Shown here: in pieces, positions 8-26,542 of the stretch | Position numbering within the stretch: position 1 is the stretch's first letter | Layout: every line of letters begins with the position of its first letter | Virus record (IMG/VR): IMGVR_UViG_3300031801_001562 | Length of the DNA stretch: 64,000 bases | From: a virus | Taxonomy: Duplodnaviria > Caudoviricetes | Direction: 5' to 3' (one strand) | Program-made: the position numbers and the translations under genes | Notes under the pieces: model-generated | Database searches by the model: none | Seen by the model: the letters and a program-made list of their open reading frames with translations, nothing else | Told to the model about the DNA's origin: nothing

Positions 8-2524
8 TTAAGCAACCATTTCCGCAAATCTTTGAAGCATTATCCTTTTTTCTAATTTTCCTTTCTGAAATTTTTTGAATGCCTTAGTCAAAGAAGCAGT
101 TGAATTAACTTTATTAGAATCAATATTTATTTCATCCTCCATCATAACGGAGGTATGTTGTTTGATTACATAAAGTTCATCATATCCCTTATCATCTACA
201 ATCATGTATCCGTTTCGATTGTATCCGGCTTTTACATCTTGCCATTTGCTCCATCCGACCATGCGACCTGCATCATCGGAGGAAGTTGTAAGGAAAAATC
301 CTAAAACGTTTGAACCCGTCTTATATTTAAAATAATTTATAAAATTTTCTGTTTGGCGAAATCCATGACAGGCGGTCCAATCGAAAACTTTTTTTGTTTC
401 TTTATCTACCAACCTGATGTGAGAATCTCGAGTATCGATTCGTTCTATAAAAAGTTCATCTCCACTGTCTTCTCTTGTCACGAAAGATTTATGAGATGAA
501 TTAGATTCTCCGTCTGAAAGAATAATTGTGTTAACAATATCAAGATTATTTTCTCTTTGGAATCTTTTAACATTTGCTGAACTTATCATGATTGCATCAT
601 TCAAAGGAGTTCCGCAAAGACGATGCAGCGGCCATTTAATATGACGACCTATTGAATTCCATTCCCAAGATGATCGACATTTATTTTCCGCACCCCAACT
701 GTCATAAATTATAGAAGGGATTGTATCTTTCGGAAGTTTGGTATTTCGACCAGTAAATGCATTTCTATTAATTATTTTCTCTCTTCTTTCTTCTAACCAG
801 TACGCGCCCATAAAATCTCTATCGCATCGAAGTATAGATAAAAGAAGATTTTCACGTTGATTCTTAAATTCTTTACTGGTCATTTTATTAGAAAATATTT
901 CCATTAATTGAGTAGATTTATCTCCCATTGCCATATCGCCTAATCGTTCTTTATAAGGGGTCCCAAATTTTTCTTTTTCTTTTCCTTCTTCATCAAAACT
1001 ATAATCAACAAAAGCATATGCCTCATGAGCGATATTACATTTCCTGCAGAAATCTATTAATTGAAATAATTGATTCAAAGTTGGAATCATTTTATCACTC
1101 ATAGATCCTGACCAATCCATTAAAAAATAAAGTCCGTGACTCTTACCTTCAGGAACAATCGTGATTTTCTTAAAAATATTATCACAATATTTGTACTTAT
1201 GAATATCTGAAAGAGATATAGTACCTGTGTTTGCGGTCATCGACCTTTTATATTCAGCTGCTTTCTTTTTCATTTCAAATTCTTTAACAAGATAATTAAC
1301 AACTGGTTTATTTTCCTTGTCGATATATTTCAAATATTCGCGCGCATATCCAAATGCTAATGAATATTCCCTTTCCCACTCACTCTCTCCCTTATTTGCC
1401 CCTATCAAATAATCCCTGCGTTCATCTAGTGCTTCCTGAGTTCTTTTTAAAAGTTCTTTATAACTAATAATTAAATTTTCACTTTTTAAATCAATTGTTG
1501 GTGAATTATAATATTTCAACTCTAGTGCATCTTCATGAACTAGTTCTTCCTCATGTTCACGAAAATTCTGATCGGTTAAGGATTTCGGTTCATGTTTCCA
1601 TTTCCATGGATCATCTTCATACCACTTATCATATCCTCCTACTCTCTCTCCTCCCAGCTTTTTTCCTTCTTCCTCTTTTTCTTCATCTGCTTCAGACTGA
1701 GAAGATTCTTGATCTCCATTATCTTCTTCTTTTTGATCTTCTTCTTGATCTCCATCAGTTCCTTCATTATCGCATTTATCTGCCGGCTTGTCACAATCAT
1801 CTTTTTCTGTTTCCTCTTTAGACTGATCCTGAATATCTGTTTCATTAAAATCATAATCAAAATCATTTTCCTCATCACTATCTTCTTCTTCCTCTTCATC
1901 TTCTTGATAATATTGATCCATAAAAGAATCATCCTGACAAGTTTGCTGTTCTTGTTCGTTTTCTTTAGCATAATCCCAAAGTTCCTCGGTCAGTTGTTCA
2001 ACATCTCCCCAAGTCTCAAGTTCTGCCATCTTATCAACAAATGGTTTCTCTGCTTCGGTGAATTGAACATTCTCTAAAGGTCCACCCTTAAAATGAATAT
2101 TAAGTTTATCAATTAATGAACCAGAATTGATATCAATATTATATTGCTTGAGGCCGAAAAAATCTCTATCATGCACTAAGATTTTATATCCCTTGCTCAT
2201 CGCCTTTCCGGCACCTGCGAACTTTCTTTTGATTAATTTTTCGATCCTGGCATCTTCCACAACGTTCAAAAAGCCCTTATAATTCGGTCCTTTTGTTTCA
2301 ATAACCTTGTGCCAACCATGAGCTGGAGTATTTAAAGCGTGTCCGACTTCATGACAAACAAATAAGTCATAAACCTCACCTTCCATCTCTTTGAGAATCG
2401 GTAAAATTAATGTTCTGCCTTTCGGATCGAATCCGGCGGTTGGAACTTTAGCGTGGCGAACAGTAATATTTTCTGTTGCCATGAGTTTTGCTAAAATGCT
2501 TTTTTGTTCTAATAATTCATCCAT
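8..2524 (-). CDS. HEXXH metallopeptidase-like N-terminus + acidic linker + VWA domain (CobT-like partner of phage AAA ATPases)
   Basis: CHEVGH motif, D/E-rich linker, MIDAS DWSGS, later ILSDGE. Confidence 0.75.
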   Translation of the reverse strand: MDELLEQKSILAKLMATENITVRHAKVPTAGFDPKGRTLILPILKEMEGEVYDLFVCHEVGHALNTPAHGWHKVIETKGPNYKGFLNVVEDARIEKLIKRKFAGAGKAMSKGYKILVHDRDFFGLKQYNIDINSGSLIDKLNIHFKGGPLENVQFTEAEKPFVDKMAELETWGDVEQLTEELWDYAKENEQEQQTCQDDSFMDQYYQEDEEEEEDSDEENDFDYDFNETDIQDQSKEETEKDDCDKPADKCDNEGTDGDQEEDQKEEDNGDQESSQSEADEEKEEEGKKLGGERVGGYDKWYEDDPWKWKHEPKSLTDQNFREHEEELVHEDALELKYYNSPTIDLKSENLIISYKELLKRTQEALDERRDYLIGANKGESEWEREYSLAFGYAREYLKYIDKENKPVVNYLVKEFEMKKKAAEYKRSMTANTGTISLSDIHKYKYCDNIFKKITIVPEGKSHGLYFLMDWSGSMSDKMIPTLNQLFQLIDFCRKCNIAHEAYAFVDYSFDEEGKEKEKFGTPYKERLGDMAMGDKSTQLMEIFSNKMTSKEFKNQRENLLLSILRCDRDFMGAYWLEERREKIINRNAFTGRNTKLPKDTIPSIIYDSWGAENKCRSSWEWNSIGRHIKWPLHRLCGTPLNDAIMISSANVKRFQRENNLDIVNTIILSDGESNSSHKSFVTREDSGDELFIERIDTRDSHIRLVDKETKKVFDWTACHGFRQTENFINYFKYKTGSNVLGFFLTTSSDDAGRMVGWSKWQDVKAGYNRNGYMIVDDKGYDELYVIKQHTSVMMEDEINIDSNKVNSTASLTKAFKKFQKGKLEKRIMLQRFAEMVA

Positions 2525-2855: not shown

Positions 2856-2977
2856 CATATTTGATTTCTTGTAATATCAACTGGTTACCTGTATCTCATT
2901 AAAATCATTGAAAATCTTTTTTGATAAATATTAGAATTGGAGAGAATATTTAATGAATTTTTTTGGAAAGGAACAAC

Positions 2978-3811
2978 TTGACCAGTTTAATTATGCCTAC
3001 AGATTTTGATAATGCCGTTACCAGTCTTCGTAAATTTTTTCATTCCCGTGGTTTTCTCGAAGTACACACCCAAAACAGATTATCCATATTAGCCGCTTGC
3101 GAAGATCCCACAACTGTCGCAACATATAATTATAATGACATCATATGGCCTTTGCCTCAAACAGGTCAAATGTGGTTAGAATATGAGCTATTAAATAATC
3201 CAGATTTAAGAGGTGTATTCTGTGTTTCAACATCTTATAGACAAGAGCAGAACCCCGTTGAAGGTAGACATGAAGTTATATTTCCCATGTTTGAATTTGA
3301 AGCACCTGGCGACTTTCAGGACTTGCTTAATATGGAAAGAGATTTAATTAAGCACTTAGGTTTCATAATTCCAGATAACAATTCATTTCCTGAAAAAACC
3401 TACGGTATGTGGTGCGAGGATTTTGATTGTGATGAATTAGATCATGACCACGAACAAATGATATCTGATTCCCATCCATCCGGAGTTGGATTTATAACTC
3501 AATTTCCTTATCATACTTCCCCCTTTTGGAATATGAAAAAAGAAGGTGATCTTGCTAACAAATGCGATGTAATTATGGGGGGCATGGAAACTATTGGTTC
3601 CGCTGAAAGGTCTGCTGATCCGAAAGAGATGGAAGACCAGTTTCATACAATTTCCGATGGAGAATATGCTGAATTATTATTTAAATTATTCGGTAAAGAA
3701 CGAGTAGAAAAAGAATTGAAAGAATTCTTAAGTCATAAATTTTTTCCAAGATATGGTGGTGGAATAGGTCTTACCAGACTTATAAGTGCCCTGAAGATTA
3801 ATAATGCGTGA
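2978..3811 (+). CDS. class II Asp/Asn-tRNA synthetase-like catalytic core without anticodon-binding domain (AsnA/AsnRS2-like)
   Basis: motif 1 FFHSRGFLEVHT, motif 2 YRQE..RH..FPMFEFE, motif 3 GGGIGLTRL; no N-terminal OB fold; probable TTG start at 2978 after AGGA. Confidence 0.85.
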   Translation: MTSLIMPTDFDNAVTSLRKFFHSRGFLEVHTQNRLSILAACEDPTTVATYNYNDIIWPLPQTGQMWLEYELLNNPDLRGVFCVSTSYRQEQNPVEGRHEVIFPMFEFEAPGDFQDLLNMERDLIKHLGFIIPDNNSFPEKTYGMWCEDFDCDELDHDHEQMISDSHPSGVGFITQFPYHTSPFWNMKKEGDLANKCDVIMGGMETIGSAERSADPKEMEDQFHTISDGEYAELLFKLFGKERVEKELKEFLSHKFFPRYGGGIGLTRLISALKINNA

Positions 3812-3814
3812 TAC

Positions 3815-3925
3815 TCTGGGGTGGCGAAATAGGGAAACGCGGCACGTTGTTTGCGTGTTATCTTTGGTTTGATCGATATAATCTAGATCAAAGATGTGTT
3901 GGTTCGAGTCCAACCCCCAGAGCCA
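3815..3925 (+). tRNA. atypical tRNA, anticodon GUU (Asn), 39-nt variable region, encoded CCA
   Basis: acceptor TCTGGGG/CCCCAGA+G+CCA; D arm GCG-AAATAGGGAAA-CGC; anticodon arm GCACG-TTGTTTG-CGTGT; T arm GTTGG-TTCGAGT-CCAAC. Confidence 0.8.
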
Positions 3926-21007: not shown

Positions 21008-21764
21008 CTACATTAATACATCCTACAATATGTATTCTACTTACCTTTCGCGATAAATTAATTCCTGAATGATATACCTCTGTATTCATTAAATGAACCT
21101 CTCCCGGATATATGTGGTATACTTCTTTATTACCTTCTATGTTTTCTATAAGATGAAAGCTATCACTATCACCACATAAAGGTATATGAATCCTCATACT
21201 GGGATCATGATGCCATGACAGACACGATTTAGGTTTTAATAACATCAATCGTGATCTATACATTTTTAATTCTTTAAGTAAATTATTAGTATAATTCATC
21301 TCCGGAAATAAAGGAATTATAAAATCCTGTTCATTATATCCTGCTTCTGCTATTTCTTTAAACTCTCTGGAACCAAAATAAACATCATCTTCTTTTCCCT
21401 CAGCTCCTTGAATCATGATTTGACATATACCCTCTGTTTTCCAGTCTTCTCCAACAACCTTTATCTCTTCAAGGATTTTATCAACATCAATATCATGTCT
21501 GAGAGGCATTGTTCGATTATCGCCTATGTCTGCTCGTAAAGTCATTCTTCCCCTAATATTCGAAAAGTGTTCACATTTTTTAGCAACTCCAGGAATCACT
21601 GGTAGTTTTATTTTTTTATTTCCTACAAAAATTCTATATTGATTTTTTTCATTTCCACATCTTACTCCCTGACCTAAAGCAACCATCCAAGACATATATT
21701 CACAATTATAACAACATTCATAATCTTTAGGGATTTGATTTCTAGTATGTAAATTATATTCCAT
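20991..21764 (-). CDS. Asp/Asn beta-hydroxylase-like 2OG-Fe(II) oxygenase with Cys-rich N-terminal extension
   Basis: RSRLMLL, SWHHD, RIHIPL, HSGIN..RIHIV. Confidence 0.7.
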   Translation of the reverse strand: MEYNLHTRNQIPKDYECCYNCEYMSWMVALGQGVRCGNEKNQYRIFVGNKKIKLPVIPGVAKKCEHFSNIRGRMTLRADIGDNRTMPLRHDIDVDKILEEIKVVGEDWKTEGICQIMIQGAEGKEDDVYFGSREFKEIAEAGYNEQDFIIPLFPEMNYTNNLLKELKMYRSRLMLLKPKSCLSWHHDPSMRIHIPLCGDSDSFHLIENIEGNKEVYHIYPGEVHLMNTEVYHSGINLSRKVSRIHIVGCINVDDENN

Positions 21765-21838
21765 GGAGTTGCCGACAGGAGTCGAACCTGCATAAAACGG
21801 GGTTGCAATCCGTTGCCTTGCCTTTCAGCCACGGCAAC
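21764..21838 (-). tRNA. trnC: tRNA-Cys(GCA)
   Basis: acceptor GTTGCCG/CGGCAAC, U73, CCA, loop TTGCAAC, T arm GCAGG-TTCGACT-CCTGT. Confidence 0.9.
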
Positions 21839-21846
21839 ATTTATTT

Positions 21847-22170
21847 TTAAATTTCTTCTACTGTTACCATTAAAGGAAATTGATTTTCTTTTGCATGCAT
21901 CATTGATTCATATACTTTTGTTTCTGCTAACTCAAATGAATAAATGCCTGCTACACCTTTTCCTTTTTGATGAACATTCAACATTATAGCTTCTGCTGCT
22001 GCTTCCGAATGATTAAAAATTATTTGTAGTAGATATACTACAAATTCCATTGGGGTAAAATCATCGTTGTGGAAAACTACTTGATATTTATTTGGAGCTT
22101 TCAGTTTTTGTTTAGACTTCTTCTTTTCCGCTACCGTCGTTTCCTGATCGTCCAATTCCTCCGAATCCAT
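21847..22170 (-). CDS. clpS: ClpS N-degron adaptor
   Basis: YQVVFHNDDFTPMEFVV, MLNVHQKGKGVAGIY. Confidence 0.93.
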   Translation of the reverse strand: MDSEELDDQETTVAEKKKSKQKLKAPNKYQVVFHNDDFTPMEFVVYLLQIIFNHSEAAAEAIMLNVHQKGKGVAGIYSFELAETKVYESMMHAKENQFPLMVTVEEI

Positions 22171-22172
22171 CT

Positions 22173-22544
22173 TTATACCATATCATATCGGGGTGATTCG
22201 TCATCGAATCGAGATTCATCGCCTAGATCAATTTCACAGATCTGTTTAATTAATTCAGCTTCTACTTTCTTATACTCTTCTGTTCCTGGCGTCAGGTGAA
22301 GTAGAGGTGAAGGGTTTTCCTTATTCCTTTGGATATCATCTAGATAATCTACACCTTCTTTTAAATGGTCATAAGGTCCTTCGAGTTTTCCTTCGAATTG
22401 CTTTAGGAATTCTTTCCGTTGTTTTTTGATGGCCCTCTTTGTTAGTTTCTTTATCTCTTTTTTAGTAGGCATTGTAGGTGTCTCCCTTGAATTGTTCTCT
22501 TTAGGATTTATAATATCCATCTGAAAGATAATAGATAAGAGCAT
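22173..22544 (-). CDS. hypothetical protein
   Basis: ORF; start uncertain. Confidence 0.45.
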   Translation of the reverse strand: MLLSIIFQMDIINPKENNSRETPTMPTKKEIKKLTKRAIKKQRKEFLKQFEGKLEGPYDHLKEGVDYLDDIQRNKENPSPLLHLTPGTEEYKKVEAELIKQICEIDLGDESRFDDESPRYDMV

Positions 22545-22654
22545 CGATCAAATCGGGATCACCCCAAGCTGATGCTGTCCATATTACTAACAAAACCATA
22601 AACAAAAATCCATACATAGAATCATTCTCCTCATTCATATTTTTTTCTTATTTT

Positions 22655-22730
22655 TGGTAGGCGATATTGGAATCGAACCAATGACCTGATGCTTGTAAAA
22701 CACCTGCTCTCCCAACTGAGCTAATCGCCT
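22655..22730 (-). tRNA. trnV: tRNA-Val(UAC)
   Basis: AGGCGAT/ATCGCCT-A-CCA, loop TTTACAA, canonical D and T arms. Confidence 0.92.
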
Positions 22731-22733
22731 ATG

Positions 22734-22817
22734 TGGTGGGGAGAGATGGAGTCGAACCATCACAGCCTCAGGCGGCAGATTTACAGTCTGTTGAGCTCAC
22801 CAATGCACAGCCTCCCC
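22734..22817 (-). tRNA. trnY: tRNA-Tyr(GUA)
   Basis: GGGGAGG/TCTCCCC-A-CCA, loop CTGTAAA, type II variable arm. Confidence 0.88.
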
Positions 22818-26467: not shown

Positions 26468-26542
26468 TGGCTGCCTAGGCTGGGCTCGAACCAGCGACAT
26501 TCTGATTAACAGTCAGATGTTCTACCACTGAACTACTAGGCA
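26468..26542 (-). tRNA. trnN: tRNA-Asn(GUU), canonical
   Basis: TGCCTAG/CTAGGCA-G-CCA, TCTGA-CTGTTAA-TCAGA. Confidence 0.95.

Follow-up and report, generated by a model that had tools for sequence, protein, structure and literature searches.

A stretch of 64,000 nucleotides from the IMG/VR virus record IMGVR_UViG_3300031801_001562 (Duplodnaviria; Caudoviricetes), which was analysed as a whole and is called the window here, contains a gene for the bare catalytic core of a class II aminoacyl-tRNA synthetase (aaRS), here named ME, and 3 bases after its stop codon a tRNA gene of aberrant shape with a GUU anticodon. Such an arrangement raised the question of whether the enzyme and the tRNA belong together and what they could do for a phage. 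We found that ME and the aberrant tRNA(GUU) constitute a real, conserved cassette that is present in hundreds of marine phages, and we tentatively propose that it supplies Asn-tRNA directly. The features of the cassette are given below.

2978–3811, plus strand: ME gene, class IIb aaRS-like catalytic core of 277 aa, stop codon TGA at 3809–3811
3815–3925, plus strand: tRNA(GUU) of 111 nt with a type II (tRNA-Leu-like) body, U1-A72, G73 and encoded CCA (RF00005 match and covariation)
3847–3853, plus strand: anticodon loop UUGUUUG, with G34, U35 and U36 at 3849–3851 and U37 at 3852 (direct reading)
3859–3897, plus strand: 39-nt variable region, a long hairpin with the outer stem AUCUUUG/CAAAGAU (minimum free energy fold and alignment)

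The linkage of the two genes was examined from both sides. An IMG/VR protein scan returned at least 597 relatives of ME, from which 80 loci were retained; these, together with five phage records and the window, gave 83 loci with enough flanking sequence, and in 74 of them a tRNA(GUU) was present downstream of ME on the same strand. The reverse scan, with a DNA pattern that combined the type II D arm of the tRNA with GUUU and drew on nothing from ME, yielded 120 IMG/VR loci, and ME was found directly upstream in 104 of the 110 (94%) that had enough upstream sequence. The tRNA lying directly downstream in homologues, which the initial annotation had proposed as a check, was thus confirmed in both directions. 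The spacing between ME and the tRNA is 3–10 nt in many loci, and in some the two overlap by 18 nt. The ME homologues of the Prochlorococcus myophages P-SSM2, P-SSM5 and P-SSM7 (61% identity) are labelled "tRNA ligase," and in these phages a tRNA-Asn(GUU) of 85–88 nt begins 7–9 nt past the ME stop. Two huge-phage genomes also encode an ME homologue, and no long-arm tRNA was found within 3 kb on either side of it. No match was obtained when blastn was run on the phage collection with the tRNA region as query, and the relatives were found through the protein instead.

Some loci differ in detail. At L014, L031 and L045, the tRNA begins 18 nt ahead of the ME stop codon, and its excision would therefore remove the end of the mRNA. 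In a group with a gap of 110–226 nt between ME and the tRNA (L015, L016, L022, L026–L028, L032, L033, L049 and L061; also L008), the gap holds a conserved mini open reading frame (ORF) of 35–80 aa with the motif IP(V/I)YKNGxGIHExxxELQRQ, and some copies extend into a zinc-finger-like CFECDxTF...HQEEH. This mini-ORF was not found in the window by tblastn. Loci L233 and L317 belong with the phage lineage of L278 and L285, which has the tRNA(GUU) and no ME.

The region 3815–3922 matched the Rfam tRNA family RF00005 at 41.5 bits (gathering threshold 29) with an insertion of about 36 nt in the variable region, and our own covariance model R1, built from the phage tRNAs, gave the window tRNA 86.3 bits. 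ARAGORN reported four canonical tRNAs in the window and nothing at 3815–3925, and it likewise missed the relatives with very long arms; the search for a tRNA in this interval thus succeeded with Rfam and failed with ARAGORN. The miss is a limit of the tool for very long arms and no argument against the tRNA. By direct reading, the acceptor stem is UCUGGGG/CCCCAGA with the pair U1-A72, followed by G73 at 3922 and CCA at 3923–3925. The D arm has a 3-bp stem (GCG/CGC) and an 11-nt loop, and the T arm reads GUUGG-UUCGAGU-CCAAC. The minimum free energy fold is a cloverleaf plus a long hairpin (z = -3.0). The canonical tRNA-Asn of the window (26468–26542, minus strand) also has U1-A72, G73, CCA and GUU, but it carries A37 and a short variable loop. 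Every feature that the initial annotation had listed for the aberrant tRNA (U1-A72, G73, CCA, GUU, 3-bp D stem, U37 and 39-nt hairpin) could be read in the sequence, and the acceptor and anticodon hallmarks it had likened to those of the tRNA-Asn at 26468 are common to both genes.

Covariation and the conservation of single positions were assessed in an alignment of 55 distinct linked tRNAs. Paired cells amounted to 98.4%, and compensatory changes were seen in 22 of 25 pairs; the observed value was reached by none of 500 shuffles and slid controls were far lower. All five helices covary, including five basal pairs of the variable arm, so that the covariation in the arm for which a check had been suggested was indeed observed across the family. 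Judged by this pattern of substitutions, selection maintains the linked tRNA as a folded acceptor. The GUU anticodon and G73 were present in 55/55, A72 in every one and the complete U1-A72 pair in 54. CCA is encoded in 40 of the tRNAs and the T loop is canonical. At position 37, 44 tRNAs carry U and 3 carry A; the remaining 8, every one of them armless, carry G. At position 33, U predominates (43 tRNAs), with A present in 7 and C in 5. A divergent subgroup of linked tRNAs (L046, L053 and L059) has the T loop UCCGA (C55) and a different D arm, and the linked tRNA at L053 has the anticodon GUC (Asp), not GUU.

Across the 55 tRNAs, the variable region can be as short as 5 nt or as long as 39 nt, the longest arms being those of the window and its closest relatives, and the arm is absent in 9. 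Within the window's own clade (L006, L010 and L013), the outer arm stem is unchanged; between clades the arm sequences are unrelated and pairing alone is retained. Because of this range of lengths, the nine armless members and the differing sequences, the arm is not a fixed identity element. That role was rejected, and the initial idea that the enzyme recognises the RNA via its long arm found no support. The remaining positions were compared with published identity sets. Bacterial AsnRS identity elements include A37 (PMC9976931), and the bacterial tRNA-Asn set (G73, G34, U35, U36 and A37) is broken here by the U37 of the window and of 44/55 tRNAs. The U1-A72 pair, which marks the substrates of GatCAB in the amidation of Asp-tRNA-Asn (PMC9976931), is present in 54 of the 55. 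The A73 of the bacterial tRNA-Leu set is absent despite the Leu-like body, G73 being found in 55/55. Charging by LeuRS, SerRS or TyrRS was rejected because G73 and A72 are always present, contrary to the published identity sets (PMC9976931). When the phage-tRNA covariance model was run on bacterial genomes, the best matches were tRNA-Leu genes at 60–71 bits, which confirmed the Leu-type body of the phage tRNA.

The enzyme was characterized by profiles, a structural model and motif comparison. The Pfam profile tRNA-synt_2 (PF00152) matched residues 8–267 of ME (profile 28–292 of 308; 2.3e-18) with 66.7 bits against a cut-off of 25, and in PHROGs ME corresponds to phrog_29758 (8e-112), annotated as "unknown function." The AlphaFold2 model (pLDDT 89.6) superposes from its first residue solely on the catalytic cores of AsnRS, AspRS and LysRS (for example, residues 245–531 of human AsnRS), and all 66 distinct relatives are of 263–315 aa. 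The motif 2 YRQE...GRH and the motif 3 GGGIGLTRL are invariant in the relatives, which together with the PF00152 score above gathering places ME in subclass IIb. Across 48 relatives, the RxE and GRH of motif 2, D192, E199, R206 and the GGGIGxTR of motif 3 are invariant, and ME thus retains all the residues needed for aminoacyl-adenylate formation. The description of ME as a class II core with motifs 1–3 and no OB domain therefore stands, with PF00152 at 66.7 bits, the motifs present and the model aligning with catalytic domains alone.

The amino-acid pocket was compared with AsnRS (six sequences), ND-AspRS (seven) and LysRS from genomes of the candidate phyla radiation (CPR) and with eight AS-AR from Thermoplasmatota. 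The pocket motif is ACE-DP in ME against NACE-G in AsnRS, and its Glu, by which AspRS and AsnRS bind the alpha-amino group, is retained in ME and lost in AS-AR. A second motif reads QTGQMWLE in ME against QSGQLYLE in AsnRS; the Lys kept here in ND-AspRS (QSPQLYKQ) and AS-AR (SMIFHKQ) is absent from ME. Both ME motifs thus follow the AsnRS type, namely ACE-G and a QSGQLYLE without the Lys of AspRS. By these motifs, ME has an AsnRS-type pocket, closer to AsnRS than to the aspartate-binding enzymes. Aspartylation by ME in the manner of ND-AspRS was rejected as first choice because the Asp-binding Lys is absent. The motifs TSPFWNM, SAER and RxGGGIGxTR are unique to the ME family.

The best match of the family profile among solved structures was Brugia AsnRS (1.9e-10), and fold comparison gave Z values of 27 for human and Brugia AsnRS (24–25% identity), 25.9 for archaeal AspRS, 24.4 for AS-AR and 23.4 for GenX. 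No curated NCBIfam model came near its cut-off with ME. The canonical AsnRS models gave 27.6 bits (TIGR00457, cut-off 342.6) and 31.6 bits (NF003037, cut-off 414), and the EpmA/GenX models gave 18.2 bits (TIGR00462, cut-off 286.9) and 23.4 bits (NF006828, cut-off 264), the pocket of ME also being unlike that of LysRS. With the AS-AR models NF005052–55 (cut-offs 322–389), the best score was 27.2 bits over a 60-residue stretch (cut-off 389), while true AsnRS and ND-AspRS score 140–197 bits on the same models. In a maximum likelihood tree, the ME family formed one clade (100/99) on a long branch and AS-AR a separate one (100/98). ME fell outside the clade of AS-AR with AsnRS and ND-AspRS (89/79) and LysRS further out, a placement on which long-branch effects may bear. 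By profile scores and phylogeny, ME represents a separate deep lineage of class IIb cores outside AsnRS, AspRS and AS-AR. The likening of ME to archaeal AsnA/AsnRS2 in the initial annotation could not be upheld in the sense of family membership, as ME scores at most 27.2 bits on the AS-AR models, does not have their signature and stands in a separate clade.

A scan of one genome per prokaryotic species returned about 385 relatives of ME with 56–64% identity, mostly in Patescibacteria/CPR, Dependentiae and Rickettsiales, and some of these genes are on complete chromosomes. Among the 80 cellular loci kept from these 385, the long-arm tRNA was present at four, all on contigs of marine metagenome-assembled genomes, which are presumed to be binned phage DNA. 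ME is sporadic in cells (2 of 151 sampled Patescibacteria), and in the tree its phage members are intermingled with the cellular ones, an indication of transfer between phages and cells. Canonical AsnRS was found in 2 of 42 ME-carrier genomes, the weaker asnS-like matches in carriers being archaeal-type ND-AspRS, and GatB was present in all five carrier genomes tested. Carriers with ND-AspRS and GatB and mostly without AsnRS would therefore use the two-step route to Asn-tRNA, and free Asn could not enter translation there via canonical AsnRS. AsnRS is not significantly rarer in carriers (2/42) than in the Patescibacteria sample (19/151; Fisher p = 0.26), and thus only the plain fact that carriers mostly have no AsnRS is used here. 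Tgt was present in 5/5 carrier cells. The tRNA-modifying Dus is encoded upstream of ME in 14 of 52 cellular loci and a DNA polymerase III clamp-loader subunit downstream in 11, and cellular ME often lies between dus and the clamp-loader gene. At eight CPR loci, a tRNA-Gln(UUG) lies 0.15–2.1 kb downstream of ME.

Direct charging is favoured by several findings taken together: ME and the tRNA are linked, the pocket is AsnRS-like, the acceptor marks are invariant, A37 has been lost, and ME occurs in cells without AsnRS. The intact adenylate-forming residues of ME and the Dus gene upstream of it in 14 of 52 cellular loci also count for this reading. We therefore suggest, with confidence somewhat short of even, that ME is an anticodon-blind AsnRS-type enzyme that gives a direct supply of Asn-tRNA and comes with an extra tRNA. 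The cassette would serve the Asn decoding supply of marine T4-like phages. A host-type promoter would drive one RNA with ME and the tRNA, and a cut by RNase P at 3814/3815 would free the tRNA. ME would then activate asparagine and transfer Asn to the CCA end of tRNA(GUU), reading the acceptor end (U1-A72 and G73) and not the anticodon or the arm. This would be a one-step route to Asn-tRNA(Asn) beside the host AsnRS or ND-AspRS/GatCAB, and the linked tRNA would raise the decoding capacity for the many AAU/AAC codons of an AT-rich phage, where 5.6% of all codons specify Asn and AAU accounts for four fifths of these (AAT 692 against AAC 159). As the tRNA keeps GUU, G73 and U1-A72, host enzymes could still use it, and as U37 replaces the AsnRS determinant A37, a helper enzyme would make sense. 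A phage tRNA-Leu gene may have been the ancestor from which the Leu-type body, U37 and the rapidly evolving arm derive; alternatively, these features may be a means of escaping host enzymes that act on the anticodon loop of tRNA-Asn.

Several observations weigh against direct charging by ME. Structure alignment and the length of ME (272–282 aa) show that both the OB anticodon-binding domain and the hinge are absent, and to our knowledge none of the characterised class IIb cores that lack such a domain charges tRNA, the product of AsnA and AS-AR being asparagine and the target of EpmA being EF-P. ME has a net charge of -21 against about -9 for AsnRS cores, and it shares a Glu-Arg with AS-AR (SAER in ME and GGERE in AS-AR) where AsnRS and AspRS have Gln-Arg. 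In bacteria, tRNA-Gln also has U1-A72 and G73 (PMC9976931), and an enzyme reading only these marks would therefore see tRNA-Gln as well. For a tRNA that decodes on the ribosome, the absence of U33 in 12/55 and the pyrimidine at position 37 in 44 are both unusual. Furthermore, cellular ME homologues have no special tRNA nearby, and the covariance-model search found no GUU tRNA with a long arm in the carrier genomes. In about one-tenth of the phage loci, ME is followed directly by other genes and not by the tRNA. Conversely, two phage genomes of about 195 kb (IMG/VR; CheckV complete, 100%) have the long-arm U37 tRNA(GUU) and no ME homologue genome-wide, and thus the tRNA does not need ME. With ME alone in about 385 cellular genomes and these phage loci, and the tRNA alone in two complete phages, the proposal of an "orthogonal" or obligate pair had to be given up; the pair is synergistic, either partner being able to occur alone.

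That the partners occur singly would also be expected if ME were a tRNA-independent asparagine synthetase like AsnA/AS-AR (Asp + NH3 + ATP -> Asn) and the tRNA an extra tRNA-Asn charged by the host, in which case the two would raise the Asn-tRNA supply from both ends. We regard this as rather unlikely, although asparagine synthesis is the sole known activity of Asx-type class IIb cores without an anticodon domain. The AS-AR fold match is nearly equal to that of AsnRS (Z 24.4 versus 27), the Glu-Arg of SAER/GGERE and the acidity of ME fit as well, and the GUU, G73 and U1-A72 retained in the tRNA are read by host AsnRS, ND-AspRS and GatCAB. Both the family tests, which ME fails, and its context in cells weaken this reading. 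The AS-AR models score ME at no more than 27.2 bits where true AsnRS and ND-AspRS reach 140–197, the tree puts it outside the group of AS-AR, AsnRS and ND-AspRS, and at the Lys and Glu positions it is the opposite of AS-AR. Moreover, 40 of the 42 carrier cells have no canonical AsnRS for free Asn, and the 94% linkage of the tRNA to ME would be reduced to mere co-regulation. Still in its favour, cyanobacterial hosts probably have AsnRS, and GatCAB might use asparagine as an amide donor.

An acceptor other than the tRNA 3' end is a further alternative, which we consider unlikely: ME could ligate an amino acid to a nucleoside of the GUU(U) anticodon loop, as GluQRS/YadB does, or to a translation factor, as EpmA does, the linked tRNA being the substrate or a mere neighbour. 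Both precedents are synthetase cores minus the anticodon domain, and ME is a deep lineage of its own with the unique motifs TSPFWNM and RxGGGIGxTR. The invariant GUU, preferred U37 and relaxed U33 form a pattern that an enzyme recognising the loop would explain better than would ribosomal constraint by itself, and Dus adjoins ME in cells, of which 5/5 carriers have Tgt. Bacterial Tgt, however, needs U33 to insert queuosine (Q), and since 12/55 linked tRNAs have no U33, a Q34-based reaction cannot be general. The EpmA models give only 18–23 bits with a pocket that is not LysRS-like, and no candidate protein target is linked to the ME gene. It is decidedly unlikely that the ME family performs a tRNA-directed chemistry unknown for any synthetase paralogue, such as loading tRNA(GUU) with an amino acid other than Asn or aminoacylating a nucleoside of the GUUU loop; the Leu-bodied U37 tRNA would then be a purpose-built substrate and not a plain decoder. 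Finally, the tRNA may be a spare or decoy that by its U37, non-U33 and foreign body resists host nucleases directed at tRNA-Asn or dependence on modification, with ME a functionally separate neighbour. Such a role agrees with the anticodon-loop changes, which fall precisely on positions 33 and 37, with the normal tRNA-Asn also in the window and with the persistence of the tRNA without ME in two complete phage genomes. We hold it to be very unlikely, as it does not explain why 104/110 such tRNAs lie directly behind ME, a decoy does not need the conserved U1-A72, G73 and CCA, and no nuclease targeting tRNA-Asn is known for these hosts. Direct supply of Asn-tRNA by ME thus remains the reading that we favour.

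The gene call and the expression of the cassette were also examined, and the following further features were noted.

TTG at 2963 and ATG at 2993, plus strand: alternative starts of ME (protein range 272–282 aa)
2908–2937, plus strand: sigma-70-like promoter candidate TTGAAA-18-TAGAAT, agreeing at 10/12 consensus positions

The TTG at 2978 is the likely start of ME, as it yields the MTxLIxP N-terminus of the relatives and is preceded by AAGGA. All the other plus-strand ORFs of at least 150 aa in the window overlap minus-strand genes, and ME with its tRNA is therefore the only clear plus-strand unit in 64 kb, as had been noticed initially. Promoter-like sites of the kind seen at 2908–2937 are no more frequent in the region than in shuffles, and this site is thus a candidate only. 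A perfect sigma-70 consensus (TTGACA-17-TATAAT with an upstream TG) at 2827–2855 on the minus strand faces the minus-strand gene 2509–2778; as it points away from the unit, the intergenic region looks like a divergent promoter pair. Contigs from seawater metatranscriptomes that are identical to the window cover 2948–3399 and 3516–3788, and one contig of a related strain spans the end of the ME ORF into the tRNA. Such contigs carry no information on ends, strand or processing and may include DNA carry-over, and they are taken as presence in RNA libraries only. The window-identical contigs start at 2948 and 2957, positions that as contig ends cannot prove a transcript start, and the ends of several contigs at 3781–3788 are best explained by strain variants there. 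ME and the tRNA are probably a co-transcribed cassette.

Elsewhere in the window, ARAGORN placed canonical tRNAs on the minus strand at 21764–22817 and 26468–26542 (Cys-GCA, Val-UAC, Tyr-GUA and Asn-GUU), all with encoded CCA, and an ORF at about 21890–22170, between tRNA-Cys and tRNA-Val, resembles the Clp adaptor ClpS by eye. An 838-aa protein (8–2524, minus strand) has a long acidic low-complexity stretch and about 33% identity to "peptidase/hypothetical" genes of Synechococcus and Prochlorococcus myophages; from this low identity, the window phage is distantly related to known cyanomyophages.

Literature searches found no functional study of ME and only the label "tRNA ligase" (T4-GC 194) for P-SSM2 and P-SSM7 (PMC3037559), and it has been suggested in general terms that phages may charge the tRNAs they encode (PMC7162821). 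The phage tRNA is a clear natural identity transplantation, with Asn marks in a Leu frame and a pyrimidine at position 37, and its long-armed forms escape standard tRNA finders. If ME charges it, ME would be a naturally occurring synthetase that functions as a bare catalytic core, which is relevant to synthetase evolution, and genetic-code engineering could start from the compact anticodon-blind enzyme-tRNA pair. Phages of the most abundant marine bacteria, and also reduced-genome symbionts thought to rely on ND-AspRS/GatCAB only, would then have a direct route to Asn-tRNA. If ME is an asparagine synthetase or a modifier instead, it is still a very abundant uncharacterised lineage of at least 8000 protein clusters, which moves between phages and cells and is annotated merely as "tRNA ligase."

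Among known systems, ME is most like the AsnRS core (human 8TC8, Brugia 2XGT and Pyrococcus 1X54; Z 25–27, root-mean-square deviation 2.2–2.5 over about 245 residues, 21–25% identity), with which it shares motifs 1–3, the ACE motif and the Q-x-G-Q-x-x-L-E motif. It differs from AsnRS by a motif 2 loop that is one residue longer and not basic and by having neither OB domain nor hinge. AS-AR ("AsnRS2"; 3P8T/3REU/3REX) and AsnA are likewise stand-alone class IIb cores of about 290 aa without an anticodon domain (Z 23.7–24.4), but AS-AR kept the Lys and lost the aaRS Glu, and ME is reversed at both. AS-AR lives alongside AsnRS in its genomes, whereas ME carriers mostly have no AsnRS (present in 2/42). 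EpmA/GenX/PoxA and GluQRS/YadB resemble ME as cores without the anticodon domain (Z 23.4 for the GenX fold). EpmA, a LysRS paralogue, modifies EF-P and GluQRS/YadB, a GluRS paralogue, glutamylates Q34 of tRNA-Asp, so that both took a new acceptor. Unlike ME, EpmA has a LysRS-type pocket and GluQRS is of class I, and neither is linked to a dedicated tRNA gene. The tRNA shares with bacterial type II tRNA-Leu its residues 8–25 (UGGCGAAAUUGGUAGACGC type), the 3-bp D stem, A15-U48 and a long variable hairpin; in contrast, it has G73 (the Leu identity being A73, PMC9976931), U1-A72, GUU and U37, and its arm reaches 39 nt where normal type II tRNAs have at most about 16 extra nt (PMC9976931). The cassette as a whole is comparable with the sets of synthetases and tRNAs that huge phages encode (Al-Shayeb et al, 2020; PMC7162821), and two such genomes encode ME. 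The huge-phage synthetases are mostly full-length and host-related, whereas ME belongs to a separate lineage, has no anticodon domain and is coupled to a single remodelled tRNA.

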